This document shows, piece after piece, positions 12,391-50,720 of a DNA stretch of 64,000 nt. The notes under the pieces are model-generated. The model worked only from the letters and a program-made list of their open reading frames with translations. It ran no database searches and had not been told where the DNA came from. Position numbers and translations under genes: made by a program. The number at the start of each line of letters is the position of its first letter. The stretch's first letter is position 1. Source of the stretch: Salinivirgaceae bacterium. GTDB lineage: Bacteria > Bacteroidota > Bacteroidia > Bacteroidales > SZUA-534. The DNA lies in the NCBI GenBank assembly GCA_050251815.1, contig JBFWMB010000008.1, positions 2,457 through 66,456 of the forward strand, in the 5' to 3' direction.

Positions 12391-12659
12391 TTCCTTAGGG
12401 TCAAACTTCAATCAATACGCCATATGATTACCTGGCTATCAGTACCAGCTCTTTTTCTAACCTGTTTGCCAAGGTGCAACTTTGAAATCGAACAGATGCA
12501 ATAACGAAATCCCTAAGGAGCAAAATCGAACCACTGTACTTTATAACGAAGGATAAACTCACCCTACGAAATCAGAAAATTTCCTCTCAGACACTTAACT
12601 TCCCTTAACTCCTTAATGGTTCAATAAAAACCACACCCCACATACAGTAACTTAAAGCC

Positions 12660-13185
12660 CGCTGATAACACCGGGGTTTCCGCTACATACACTGGCATTC
12701 CCGCTACATAAAATGGAGTTCCCGTTCCATTAAATGATGATTCCGCTACATACACTGGCATTCCCGCACTACTAAATGATGTTTCCGTTACTGACATTGG
12801 CATTTCCGCTACATTAAAGGGCATTCCCGCTACTGACATTGGCATTTCCGCTACATTCATCCAGATTCCCGCTCCTTAGATTGGCATTTCCGCTACATAT
12901 ATTGTGGATACCGCTACTTAAACCAGGGTTTCCGCTCTATAAATTGAGGCTCCCGCTTCAACCCTTTCAATTGGCAATGAATTCATTTGGGTTTGCGTTG
13001 AGTCACGTATTGTACGCATTGTATACAGCGTGGTTTGCGTTGAATTCATTTCCAGTTGTGCTACACGAATTGTTGTTTGCGCAGCATCTCGTGTAGTTTG
13101 CGCTATATTCCTTTCAATCTGCGCTGCCAGCCGAAGGGTTTGCGCTGCATTCCTGGCAATTTGCAGTACCGATTCCGGGTATTAA
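12660..13185. repeat. strictly phased 21-bp degenerate tandem array with two core flavours
   Basis: The CG of core TTYCCGCTAC lies at 12660 and then every 21 bp to 12954 (15 units). The CG of core TTTGCG(C/T)TG lies at 12996, 13038, 13080, 13101, 13122 and 13143, with TTTGCAG in phase at 13164. Every position is an exact multiple of 21 bp from 12660. Confidence 0.9.
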
Positions 13186-13200
13186 GTCATATACACCCAT

Positions 13201-13227
13201 AAAAAAAGGAGCCCGAAGGCTCCTTTT
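13201..13227. terminator. bidirectional intrinsic terminator downstream of the LTD/T9SS gene
   Basis: GGAGCC/GGCTCC stem (13208-13213 / 13218-13223) with loop CGAA, an A-run on the left and a T-run on the right. Confidence 0.7.
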
Positions 13228-13247
13228 ATATGATACGATAAAAGTGT

Positions 13248-43956: not shown

Positions 43957-44799
43957 TTACTCCTCAACCGACTCAATCACTTTGCCGTCTTTATAAATCA
44001 GCGTGCGGATGAGTTCGCCCTGATCGTTATACAGGTAGCGCTTGCCGTTTATGAACTTGCCTTTGACAAAGTCGCCTTCGCGATCAACCTTTTTAAACTC
44101 GTTGTAGGTAACGTAATAGCCGGTTTGGGTAAAAAAATCGAGTTCCTTACCCGATGTTTTATCATTGGTAACCGGCTGGAGTTTGGGTGCGGTCTGTTTT
44201 TTTGCTGGTTTTTCGGCAATCTCAAATTCTTTAATAGAAGCTACTTCAATTTTACCATCGGTAAAATTCATTTCAGCTTTGATGCTGCCATCGGGGTGGT
44301 ATTCGGTAAGGATGCCCTGCTTTTTTCCATCGGTCCAGTCGCCTTTAATCATTAGCGAGCCGTCGCTGTAGTAATAACGCTGTTCGCCGGTACGTTGGCC
44401 GGTTTCGTTGTAGCTCCAGTCGTAGGCCAGACTTCCGTTCTCGTGGTAGTATTTGTATTCGCCCACCCACTTGTTTATTTTCCAGATTCCCTGTTCCGAA
44501 ACCTTGCCGTCGGGATAATAGAATTTGGCGGGACCATCGGGGCGGTTGTTTTTATAGGTAATTTCGTGTTTGAGTTTGCCCGAAGGATAGTAGCCATACC
44601 ACAGACCTTCTTTTTTATTATTGGTGTATTGCCCCTTTTCCTCAAGTACCCCGGCTGCGCTCAGGCTAACCCACAAGCCCTGCTTCTGGTTGTTGACATC
44701 GCGCTGATTTACGGTTTCGCCCTGATACGTTTCAGCGTGTTGCCCGAATCCGGCAAACGAAAACAATAAAAACCCTATTGCAAGCAGGTACTTCACCAT
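43957..44799 (-). CDS. secreted MORN-variant repeat protein (YwqK-like)
   Basis: 280 aa with a signal peptide and repeated G.w..Yy.nG.l motifs (GLWYGYYPSGKL, KFYYPDGKV, YKYYHENGSL, RYYYSDGSL, TEYHPDGSI). Confidence 0.7.
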   Translation of the reverse strand: MVKYLLAIGFLLFSFAGFGQHAETYQGETVNQRDVNNQKQGLWVSLSAAGVLEEKGQYTNNKKEGLWYGYYPSGKLKHEITYKNNRPDGPAKFYYPDGKVSEQGIWKINKWVGEYKYYHENGSLAYDWSYNETGQRTGEQRYYYSDGSLMIKGDWTDGKKQGILTEYHPDGSIKAEMNFTDGKIEVASIKEFEIAEKPAKKQTAPKLQPVTNDKTSGKELDFFTQTGYYVTYNEFKKVDREGDFVKGKFINGKRYLYNDQGELIRTLIYKDGKVIESVEE

Positions 44800-44940
44800 T
44801 GGGGATATTTTTTATCAAAAATAACATTTTTAGCCAGTTATTGAAAAATTAATTTTTCGAATCATCTATTCTTAAAAACAAGAATAGGAATTAAACAAAA
44901 ACTCTTTTTGATGAAAAACATTGGAACCGTTATTTTGAGT

Positions 44941-45557
44941 TTTCGCAATAGATATATGCCCCTGCGTCCTACATCGCAGCTACAATAATTTTGCAGGGCC
45001 CAAGCCGGAACCCGGTTAAGCGGCGGCCTTATATTTTGGCTTAAACAAAGCGACGGTCAGGTTCCTGCACTTTGTAGGAACTCGACTGGAGCCTCGGTTA
45101 GGTAGCTGCAAATTGCAGGAGCTCAACCGGAGTTGCGGTCAAGTCGCTGCAAATTGCAGGAGAACAAACGGAGTTGCGGTCATGCTCCTACAAAAATGCA
45201 GGAGACCAAACGGAGTTGCGATCATGCTCCTGCAAAATGCAGGAGGTTAACCGGAGTCACGGTCATGCTGCTGCATTTTGCAGGAGCTCAATCGGAGTCT
45301 CGGTTAACCTGCTGCAAGTTGAAAAGGCAAAATCTTAGTCGCGGATTTACTGAAACAAGTTGTAAAAGTAAAATCGGTGGCTCAGATTGACCCAAACATC
45401 ATGTAATTAAACAATCGGAGACTCAGATAAGCTGCTGCAAGGTAGTAAAGCTAAATCGGCGTCACGGATTTATCGAAACAAGTTGTAAGAGTTCAATCGG
45501 AGTCACAGATTTGCTGCTGCAAAAGGTATTGAACCCAAATTACTCCGGGATTAACTT
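44941..45557. repeat. degenerate tandem array of about 15 units of 41 bp, each with a CTGCA-N3-TGCAG hairpin core
   Basis: TGCAGGA or its decayed forms begin at 45073, 45114, 45155, 45197, 45238, 45279, 45320, 45361, 45402, 45443 and 45484, in steps of 41 bp with one of 42. The best unit, 45227-45245, forms CTCCTGCA-AAA-TGCAGGAG (8-bp stem). Confidence 0.88.
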
Positions 45558-45808
45558 TTCAGCTTTGTTAAAATGCTATGGGCTTTCGAACCAAGTGAAA
45601 AATCTTGCCCGCATCTTACTTATATTGTCGTTTAAACCAACTAATAGTTAAAATGCGTATTGCAACTTCTTTTTATAGTGTATCGCCGGATAGGAAAACC
45701 ACACGGGGAGCTGGTAAGCGAGTCTTTCAATTGGTTGAAATAACCGGGTCAAAAATCACAAATTGAAACTTTTTTTGCTGTTTTGTTTTGATTTAACACT
45801 TTTGCCTG

Positions 45809-45816
45809 TATATTTG
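45809..45816 (+). promoter_or_regulatory. candidate -7 promoter element (TAnnTTTG) for the SAM riboswitch and met operon
   Basis: TATATTTG lies about 32 nt upstream of the riboswitch P1 stem, with TTTG-rich sequence further upstream. Confidence 0.5.
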
Positions 45817-45847
45817 TAGCTCAATTATCGATCTTTTTACGGTTGAT

Positions 45848-45959
45848 GTTATACAGAAGAGCAGAGAGATTAGGCTCGCAGAAGCTCTAGCAACCTTCCC
45901 CCCGAAAGGAAAGGTGCTAATACCTAACCTGCCGGATATTCCGGTTGGGAAATTATAAC
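45848..45959 (+). promoter_or_regulatory. SAM-I clan (S-box) riboswitch aptamer
   Basis: P1 GTTATA...TTATAAC encloses AGAAGAGCAGAGAGATTAGGCTCGCAGAAGCTCTAGCAACC...GGTGCTAATACC. The conserved words AGAG, GCAACC and GGUGCUAA are in the order of the SAM-I consensus. It lies upstream of methionine biosynthesis genes. Confidence 0.8.
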
Positions 45960-45970
45960 GAAACAGACAG

Positions 45971-47511: not shown

Positions 47512-47632
47512 CAATGAGTAATGAACAATAGTCTTCAGTGGTCAGTTTGCAGTTTGCAGCCAACAGTTGAAACAGACAAACGAAAGCGGTGCAAGCAGTT
47601 ACCTGTAATGGAAAGCTAGAACATTATACACC

Positions 47633-47665
47633 GCAAAAGGCGGCAGGCTGCAAAAGGCGGCAGGC
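47633..47665. repeat. perfect 16-nt direct repeat with 17-bp period, in the metY-metX spacer
   Basis: GCAAAAGGCGGCAGGC occurs at 47633-47648 and 47650-47665. A CAGTTTG x2.4 repeat lies nearby at 47543-47559. Confidence 0.8.
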
Positions 47666-47731
47666 CACAAATTGCCCGTCGTTTACAACGGACATTTAAT
47701 CATTCGAATTCATTCTTAAGAAACAAAAAAC

Positions 47732-50095: not shown

Positions 50096-50198
50096 TAGAA
50101 CGCGGATAACGCAGATGCAAGCACCGCGGATTTAAAATCATAAAAATCAGCTAAAATCGGCGCTTTCGCGAAGCAAAATCCGCACCATCAGCGTTCTA
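50096..50198. repeat. left copy of a ~100-bp structured direct repeat flanking the GxxExxY gene
   Basis: TAGAACGC...GCGGATTT...TTCGCGAA...AAATCCGC...GCGTTCTA. The outer and inner arms are inverted repeats. It is co-linear with the right copy at 50626-50720. Confidence 0.85.
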
Positions 50199-50231: not shown

Positions 50232-50624
50232 ATGCCTTTAAAACATCAGGAATTATCAGAGCAGCTAATAAGAACCTTTTTCGATGTTTACAATGAATTG
50301 GGATATGGTTTTCTTGAGAAAGTTTATCAAAATGCGATGTATGTTGAGTTGAAATCCCGGGGATATTATGTTGAAGCACACAAACAATTAAAAGTATATT
50401 ATAAAAATGTGGAAGTAGGTGAATATTATCCCGACTTAATTGTTGATGATAAAATAATTATCGAACTTAAGGCTGCCGAATATCTGGTACAGGAAAACGA
50501 AGCTCAATTAATAAACTATTTGAAGGCTACCGATATTGAGGTTGGTTTACTGTTTAATTTTGGAAAGAAGCCTGAATTTAAAAGAAAAGTATTTGAAACA
50601 GCCAGAAGTATTAAAAAAAAATAA
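50232..50624 (+). CDS. GxxExxY protein (PD-(D/E)XK nuclease-like, PDDEXK_3)
   Basis: 130 aa. The eponymous motif is GFLEKVY. The PD-(D/E)XK-like core is YYPDLIVDDKIIIELKA. Confidence 0.88.
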   Translation: MPLKHQELSEQLIRTFFDVYNELGYGFLEKVYQNAMYVELKSRGYYVEAHKQLKVYYKNVEVGEYYPDLIVDDKIIIELKAAEYLVQENEAQLINYLKATDIEVGLLFNFGKKPEFKRKVFETARSIKKK

Positions 50625-50625
50625 C

Positions 50626-50720
50626 AAAACGCGGATGCAAGCAACGCGGATTTAATTACAAAAAAGATCAGCGAATATCAGCGCTTTCGCGATAGCGAAA
50701 TCCGCGGCATCGGCGTTCTA
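50626..50720. repeat. right copy of the structured direct repeat flanking the GxxExxY gene
   Basis: AAAACGCGGATGCAAGCAACGCGGATTT...CAGCGCTTTCGCGATAGCGAAATCCGCGGCATCGGCGTTCTA is the same word order as the left copy. Confidence 0.85.

Follow-up and report, generated by a model that had tools for sequence, protein, structure and literature searches.

What is the repetitive DNA that fills a gap of about 1 kb between a MORN_2 gene and a SAM-I riboswitch in a Salinivirgaceae bacterium, and does it have a function there? The window analysed in this study is a stretch of 64,000 nt from contig JBFWMB010000008.1. The gap in it holds a head-to-tail array of 41-bp units, described in an earlier note, made from the letters alone, as about 15 hairpin-bearing units. 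With high confidence, the array is a young, clade-restricted, non-coding DNA minisatellite with a palindromic 41-bp unit, gain and loss of whole units and a homogenised centre. Sequence comparison tentatively favours a role for the intact units as phased double-stranded DNA sites for a putative dimeric protein, between divergent promoters.

Tandem Repeats Finder reported a 41-bp period at 45105-45321 (5.3 copies, 80% matches, score 229) and a 123-bp period (3 × 41) at 45289-45511 (score 297). The in-register slices start at 44941, 44982, 45023, 45064, 45105, 45146, 45188, 45229, 45270, 45311, 45352, 45393, 45434, 45475 and 45516, and the last of these 15 slices ends at 45556. Slice 45146 is 42 nt long, with the extra base in the palindrome spacer, and the other slices are 41 nt. 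The slice coordinates and the TGCAGGA starts given in the earlier note, in 41-bp steps with one of 42, were correct. A unit profile detected 14 units (E values of 1e-9 to 0.09), and its hits spanned 44988-45556. The first slice, 44941-44981, matched the consensus at 13/41 positions, which is the chance level. The array is therefore real but is better described as 14 units, five of them well kept, than as about 15. Its parts are listed below without strand; L080, L134 and L149 are relatives that carry the array at the same locus as the window.

44982-45556: recognisable array as a whole, with 14 units of 41 bp (one of 42 bp) head to tail, from Tandem Repeats Finder, the register table and the profile hits.
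44941-44981: first 'unit' of the earlier note, not demonstrably a unit (13/41); homologous from about 44958 to the left flank in L149.
44982-45104: three old degenerate left units; 9.7% differences from their L149 counterparts, neutral sites about 29%.
45105-45310: five well-kept type A units, consensus GCTGCAAATTGCAGGAGCTCAACCGGAGTTrCGGTCATGCT.
45311-45515: five AT-rich type B units in a 123-bp higher-order repeat, consensus GAAACAAGTTGTAAAAGnAAAATCGGAGTCGCGGATTTACT; overall near neutral between species.
45516-45556: terminal unit, GCTGCAAAAGGTATTGAACCCAAATTACTCCGGGATTAACT; 98% identical to L080 in pairwise alignment.

The blocks CTGCA, TGCAGGAG, CAA, CGGAGT and CGGT hardly varied among 21 good units from the four genomes, and the palindrome spacer and positions 18-19, 23, 30-31 and 36-41 were free to vary. 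By our own count, the G+C content of the consensus units was 34% for type B vs 54% for type A. The decay toward both ends that had been described earlier is thus only part of the picture. The centre is homogenised and the edges are older, but the right-hand units are an AT-rich subtype with its own palindrome, and the array is asymmetric, with left units that are old yet conserved between species.

The unit is non-coding. Open reading frames (ORFs) across the array were short, used TTG starts and had no Pfam hit. A coding repeat was rejected on these grounds, together with the unit length, which is not a multiple of 3, and the stop codons in type B units. The plus-strand consensus was stop-free in all frames, for which the chance expectation is about 10-14%. 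An array of clustered regularly interspaced short palindromic repeats (CRISPR) was also rejected, as it had been in the earlier note: the units abut without unique spacers, as in a minisatellite, and the Pfam lists of the neighbouring genes contained no cas domain. CRISPR-DR matches in Rfam were all below threshold and outside the array.

The distribution of the unit was searched in one genome per species with three phased AAnCGGAGT motifs, which gave at least 120 loci. The sole related locus among them was L080, a Salinivirgaceae metagenome-assembled genome (MAG) with met genes of 88-90% nucleotide identity. The other loci were unrelated tandem repeats, several of them in Bacteroidota with 21/41/42-bp periods and mostly non-coding; an Arcicella/Cytophagales repeat among them resembled a 14-aa coding repeat. 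A metagenome search with a single good unit returned one true match (L134) and 16 chance hits, and L149 was reached through its MORN homologue (95% amino-acid identity). The array-bearing genomes include GCA_964559525.1 and the JBFXEW01 Salinivirgaceae MAG. Three unit profiles found no unit elsewhere in the 64-kb window, and the genome and metagenome searches found only the orthologous locus, one per genome or metagenome. The many loci per genome that are typical of MIRU- or REP-like elements (mycobacterial interspersed repetitive units, repetitive extragenic palindromes) were thus not seen in the window, genome or metagenome searches. Searches of 72,556 plasmids, 50,697 phage records and IMG/VR showed no similarity; the viral-contig searches gave a single match, at chance level, in coding DNA of high G+C content.

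Copy number differed between the related genomes by whole units, as in a variable-number tandem repeat (VNTR), and this accounted for all length change of the array. Good type A units numbered 5 in the window, 4-5 in L080, 8 in L149 and 3 in L134. L080 had 7 right-hand units vs 5 in the window, and also a 42-nt unit insertion. The exact MORN protein was present on three contigs of the same species, L001, L002 and L003. L002 was identical across the entire spacer. L001 (GCA_964559525.1) had a gap of 100 N exactly at the 123-bp repeat (L001:9335-9434), and L003 ended at the same point. Contigs L003, L134 and L149 all end within repeats, and short-read assemblies break in the array. No strain-level length change was found across the four assemblies of the window species (>99% identical) where the array was assembled.

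The array was absent from the next relatives, L150 and L124 (MORN 77-78% amino-acid identity), L126-128 (73%), and L129 and L131 (63%); roughly 170 nt separate the riboswitch and the MORN gene in L131. Differences at four-fold degenerate sites were 0.53-0.68 vs L150 and 0.27-0.35 among the four carriers. These divergences and the pattern of presence place the origin of the array between two splits, the one that separated L150 and the later one among the four carriers. Head-to-tail amplification of the 41-bp unit between the met operon and the MORN_2 side thus took place in the recent ancestor of a narrow clade of Salinivirgaceae. The 14-mer CTGCAACATTTTTG is found in the array-less L126 a short way upstream of the met promoter (L126:3940-3990), with an inverted TTGCAG 17 nt upstream of it, and in L149 at the left array edge (L149:400-440). 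The unit may have been amplified from a sequence of which this 14-mer is a remnant.

The unit carries two dyad-symmetric sequences, CTGCANNNTGCAG and AATCNGNGNCNCNGATT. The scan for dyad symmetry by unit phase showed top centres at positions 8.0 (P1) and 28.5/29.0 (P2) in both species tested. The distance between P1 and P2 is 20.5 bp, about two helical turns, and the unit period is about four turns. The dyads, again without strand, are as follows.

45106-45118, 45147-45159, 45188-45201, 45230-45242 and 45271-45283: P1 dyads, CTGCA-N3/4-TGCAG, centre at unit position 8.
45331-45347, 45372-45388, 45413-45429, 45454-45470 and 45495-45511: P2 dyads of the type B units, skeleton AATCnGnGnCnCnGATT, centre at unit position 29.

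CTGCA-N3-TGCAG was perfect four times (45106, 45147, 45230 and 45271), had one mismatch at 45065 and a 4-nt spacer at 45188. This motif, and the 8-bp stem at 45227-45245, had been correctly read in the central units. In the dinucleotide-shuffled window, CTGCA-N3-TGCAG had a mean of 1.2 matches and no shuffle reached 6; the core motifs of the unit were far above the shuffled expectation. P1 is followed by GGAG. P2 in type A units is ACCG-N6-CGGT, which had been ascribed to many units and was exact in only two. In type B units P1 is largely lost, and P2 is retained and stronger. The least variable 17-column window of type B is 21-37, and its conserved positions spell the perfect palindrome AATCnGnGnCnCnGATT. 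This palindrome includes G28 and C30, which are too near each other to pair in a hairpin. The array thus resembles sopC/parC in having tandem units with dyad-symmetric sites in helical phase, at a 41-bp period; binding is putative.

The constraint on the units was measured against about 0.29 differences per four-fold degenerate site (window vs array-bearing relatives, range 0.27-0.35). The differences per site of the matched units, with P values vs 0.29, were as follows.

Left units: 0.097 (P 2e-7).
Central units: 0.092 (P 4e-12).
Terminal unit: 0.13 (P 7e-4).
Transition units: 0.27 (P 0.38).
Right-hand units: 0.22 (P 0.04).

The right-hand part of the same array, at 0.22-0.27, therefore serves as an internal near-neutral control. 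The collinear alignment with L080 showed 80% identity in the centre and 70% in the right half. Unit length was also kept. Of the register-cut slices from the four genomes, 45/46 were 41 or 42 nt long (two of them 42), and the L149 slice at the contig end read 40. Even degenerate units, with 15-23 sites off the consensus, kept their length, and the neighbouring intergenic DNA has about one small indel per 5 substitutions. Parts of the array thus appear to be conserved more than neutral DNA, and a function is not proven by this.

The flanking features of the gap are listed with their strands.

43957-44799, minus strand: MORN_2 gene (Pfam PF07661).
44816-44823, minus strand: -7 box of the MORN_2 gene promoter, TAnnTTTG type, here TATTTTTG; the homologues in L124 and L131 have this motif upstream as well.
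45809-45816, plus strand: -7 box TATATTTG of the met-operon promoter, from the promoter motif.
45846-45961, plus strand: SAM-I riboswitch aptamer (Rfam RF00162, 65.3 bits).

The riboswitch leads genes annotated from Pfam as O-acetylhomoserine sulfhydrylase (Cys_Met_Meta_PP; called metY), Abhydrolase_1 (called metX) and homoserine dehydrogenase (hom). The array lies outside the riboswitch transcript because the met -7 box is downstream of it. Each flank has its own -7 box, and transcription through the array is thus required by neither of the two flanking genes. The neighbourhood is of housekeeping type (cysS, asnS, rpoN, RNase R, the met genes and infB/nusA/rimP).

Two further observations concern the same gap. 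The right flank (45556-45760) is conserved non-coding DNA, about 88% identical in L080 and about 82% in L134, with indels that break the frame; a small gene at this place was rejected, as its ORFs are interrupted by indels in L080. The motif CTTCTTTTTA of the right flank is common to the window, L080 and L134, and an imperfect 27-nt palindrome lies at 45610-45657. On the left, the window has 123 unrelated bases (44855-44977) where L149 has a 385-aa gene (L149:497-2013). This gene, without Pfam or NCBIfam hit, lies between MORN_2 and the met promoter or array in L149, L126-128 and L150, and the window lineage probably lost it by deletion. The interval between array and MORN gene in L149 also holds a doubtful 69-aa ORF.

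A non-coding RNA, most likely from the plus strand, would explain the palindromes in another way: CUGCA/UGCAG hairpins followed by GGAG would sequester an RNA-binding protein like CsrB/RsmZ, as had also been proposed. Folding of the central units is very stable on both strands (z about -10), good units keep the 5-bp stem while their loop bases vary, and there are two GGAG per unit. The stable fold is trivial, however, because the tandem palindromes of neighbouring units pair with each other and do not form unit hairpins. RNAalifold found 0 consensus pairs over 45 aligned units, and the named two-hairpin structure had 75.7% paired cells in these units vs 73.0% in shuffles; the covariation measures were also near their shuffled controls. 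The sole pair changed on both sides in more than three units was 4-12, with a series of G-C, G-U and A-U that would be tolerable on the plus strand only. The change from G4-C12 to A4-T12 was rejected as compensatory, being two GC-to-AT transitions as in AT-biased decay, with a single founder of type B possible. The proposed check of the CTGCA/TGCAG stem for compensatory changes thus gave none that convinced. In the second 'hairpin' the outer positions are unpaired in about half of the good units, and a fixed G faces C, A or T at position 23; the conservation of block 2 is one of sequence. The type B stem has shrunk to 3 bp, and the conservation of G28/C30 is inexplicable by a hairpin. GGAG extends or follows the stem and does not lie in a loop, so that the loop GGA with covariation of a sponge RNA was not found. 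Apart from spurious miRNA models, the array had no Rfam match, either at the gathering score or at E ≤ 10. The sole Bacteroidota-type -7 box into the array, TAATTTTG (44986, plus strand), is not kept in L149, which has CATTTTTG instead. No terminator-like site lies in or beside the array, and those found were all in the riboswitch leader. An RNA of this kind is therefore quite unlikely. The conservation at sequence level, the symmetry through the dyad centre and the strict register of about two and four turns agree better with a symmetric dimer that recognises double-stranded DNA than with an RNA structure.

The main rival is a functionless minisatellite, neutral or selfish, and it is possible, nearly as likely as phased sites. 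Slipped-strand mispairing or unequal recombination, aided by the palindromic unit, would have expanded a harmless spacer, and homogenisation with biased conversion would account for the conservation. The narrow clade, with the array missing in the next relatives, the whole-unit copy differences and the 123-bp higher-order repeat, typical of unequal exchange, agree with this explanation. So do the transition and right-hand units at 0.22-0.27, near the neutral 0.29, the likeness of type B to an AT-biased decay of type A (G to A, C to T), the lack of motif copies elsewhere in the searches above, and the presence of at least one other large intergenic array in the window and of unrelated non-coding 21/41/42-bp arrays, which are common in other Bacteroidota. 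Against it, divergence in the left, central and terminal units is three times slower than at four-fold sites and in right-hand units, and by population-genetic theory unbiased conversion leaves the long-term substitution rate of a repeat family unlowered. Unit length is almost perfectly kept despite the flanking indel-to-substitution ratio of about 1:5, the P2 core is symmetrically conserved in otherwise decayed units, and all four lineages have retained the G+C-rich array within an AT-rich spacer. A remnant of a mobile or extrachromosomal element is highly improbable. It would be an integrated plasmid centromere or iteron region, for which the likeness of the unit architecture to F-plasmid sopC speaks, or a transposable element of the miniature inverted-repeat kind (MITE) with an internal minisatellite, of BrickBuilt type. 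The about 1 kb formed by the array and its 200-bp right flank is unalignable in L150, and BrickBuilt is a precedent in Bacteroidota for a MITE with an internal minisatellite and promoter activity (PMC4596501). However, no terminal inverted repeats link the two flanks, and there is one locus per genome or metagenome. The four copies all occupy the same chromosomal position in a housekeeping locus, not the mobile element in relatives that the earlier note had considered. There were no plasmid, phage or IMG/VR hits, and no par, rep, transposase or integrase genes were found near the array in the Pfam annotation of its neighbours.

We therefore return to phased double-stranded sites as the best functional reading, and the phased binding array that had been suggested stands in this tentative form, with the 41-bp register, the two dyads 20.5 bp apart and the sub-neutral divergence in its favour. 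Up to about 28 dyads at two-turn intervals would lie roughly on one face of the double helix. A putative dimeric protein would bind these phased dyads cooperatively, and a nucleoprotein block or a protein 'sink' could form between the two divergent promoters. The hairpins would be a by-product of the dyad symmetry and not an RNA structure.

Several points weigh against this reading. Neither in the 64-kb window nor in the fetched loci, about 1 Mb in all, were P1 and the AATCnGnGnCnCnGATT skeleton found outside the arrays; the dyads thus occur only inside arrays, which gives no hint of a regulon. None of the genes next to the array encodes a regulator; they are housekeeping genes, and no binding protein was identified. 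The distance of the array from the met -7 box, about 250 bp at its end and about 830 bp at its start, is large for a classical operator. Sister lineages do without the array, copy number differs two- to three-fold among close relatives, and the right-hand units overall evolve almost neutrally. The matching of central units across species is partly based on similarity, which biases their divergence downwards, and biased gene conversion among units could mimic purifying selection. The sample is four genomes, two of them close.

An extension of this reading is unlikely. The array would be a chromosomal device for protein titration or scaffolding, in which about two dozen dyads at two-turn spacing load a sequence-specific dimeric protein cooperatively on DNA or, less likely, on a plus-strand transcript. 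If so, it would buffer the free protein concentration or insulate the met operon, with its SAM riboswitch, from its divergent neighbour. Such a device would be a chromosomal, regulator-linked analogue of sopC/parC arrays or CsrB-type sponges, neither of which is, to our knowledge, known in Bacteroidota.

Among known systems, the array is a kind of bacterial minisatellite of VNTR/MIRU type. Like the bacterial minisatellites and VNTRs, of which the mycobacterial MIRU are an example, it consists of non-coding head-to-tail units of tens of bp between genes, with whole-unit copy change, a homogenised centre, degenerate edges and breaks in short-read assemblies. MIRUs, some of which overlap short ORFs, are dispersed over about 40 loci per genome. 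Unlike them, the array unit occupies one locus, is palindromic and evolves below the neutral rate in part of the array. REPs occur in hundreds of dispersed copies, with alternating orientation within bacterial interspersed mosaic elements (BIMEs). The array shares with REP/BIME the G+C-rich palindromic units clustered in AT-rich intergenic DNA, but its units all have the same orientation and lie at one locus.

The F-plasmid sopC consists of 12 × 43 bp, and SopB binds the 16-bp inverted repeat of each unit; the parC/ParR repeats are comparable. The array resembles them in its units of about 41-43 bp (four helical turns), a dyad per unit and about a dozen copies in strict register. It differs in being chromosomal, in a housekeeping locus without adjacent partition genes and with no plasmid or phage match, and in having two dyads per unit; here, the binding is putative. 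The CsrB/RsmZ families are proteobacterial. Repeated short hairpins with a GGA-containing motif are common to them and the array. In the array, neither a conserved promoter nor a terminator was recognised from sequence motifs, GGAG lies outside the loops, and neither covariation nor an Rfam match was found. BrickBuilt is a MITE of Porphyromonas gingivalis that is always intergenic, with a spacer-less minisatellite and a distinct 'leader' and 'tail'; its unit is 23 nt long, its ends are inverted repeats, each genome has 19 copies, and bidirectional promoter activity has been measured (PMC4596501). The array is likewise an intergenic, spacer-less minisatellite of Bacteroidota with distinct ends, but it has a 41-bp unit, no inverted-repeat ends, one locus seen and no sequence similarity to BrickBuilt.

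Other repeats were observed in the window and in related genomes. A second intergenic array at 12657-12950, continuing to about 13180, has 14 copies of the 21-bp unit TTCCGCTACATACACTGGCAT, followed by GTTTGCG(C/T)TG motifs at 21/42-bp spacing. A ZIP transporter gene (plus strand) and an LTD/DUF5689 gene (minus strand), whose product is sorted by the type IX secretion system, flank it with their 3′-ends. This second array ends at a hairpin with T-runs on both strands (13205-13228), which resembles a bidirectional terminator. Its period is half that of the 41-bp array, and the two arrays have no sequence similarity. The metY-metX spacer (window 47512-47731; L080:5096-5500; L134:1991-2313; L126:2054-2087) was unalignable between the window and its close relatives. 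L080 and L134 have ATTAGAC × 6-7 and ATTACTCATTGTTA × 3 there, and the window has GCAAAAGGCGGCAGGCT × 2 and CAGTTTG × 2.4.

A gene for a 130-aa PD-(D/E)XK_3 ('GxxExxY') protein at 50232-50624 lies between hom and metH. It is flanked by 30-nt direct repeats (50142-50171 and 50663-50692) that are 87% identical and 521 bp apart, which suggests a small inserted cassette. The earlier note had proposed that the 41-bp array is an amplification site of these flanking repeats. The three unit profiles gave no hits at 50142, at 50663 or elsewhere outside the array, and kinship of the flanking repeats (D12) with the 41-bp unit was rejected; the 13-nt likeness GCTAAA(A)TCGGCG is at chance level. Outside this lineage, L043, L071, L038, L050, L062, L059, L068 and L070 are tandem arrays of Bacteroidota/Ignavibacteria with 21-, 41- and 42-bp periods, apparently non-coding by the open-frame check. 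Examples are a 21-bp unit × 50 in an Ekhidna MAG and the palindromic AATCGGAGTCATTCCCGATTG × 13.6 in a Prevotellaceae MAG. These arrays are unrelated in sequence apart from the search motif.

For the uncultured Salinivirgaceae lineage, the array is a marker of strain or species, and it explains the contig breaks and the N-gap at this locus in public assemblies. If the constraint on its units is real, the conserved dyads in strict two-turn register beside a riboswitch-controlled operon would point to an undescribed DNA-binding factor and to a form of organisation or insulation of divergent promoters in Bacteroidota. The array would itself be a ready bait for that factor.

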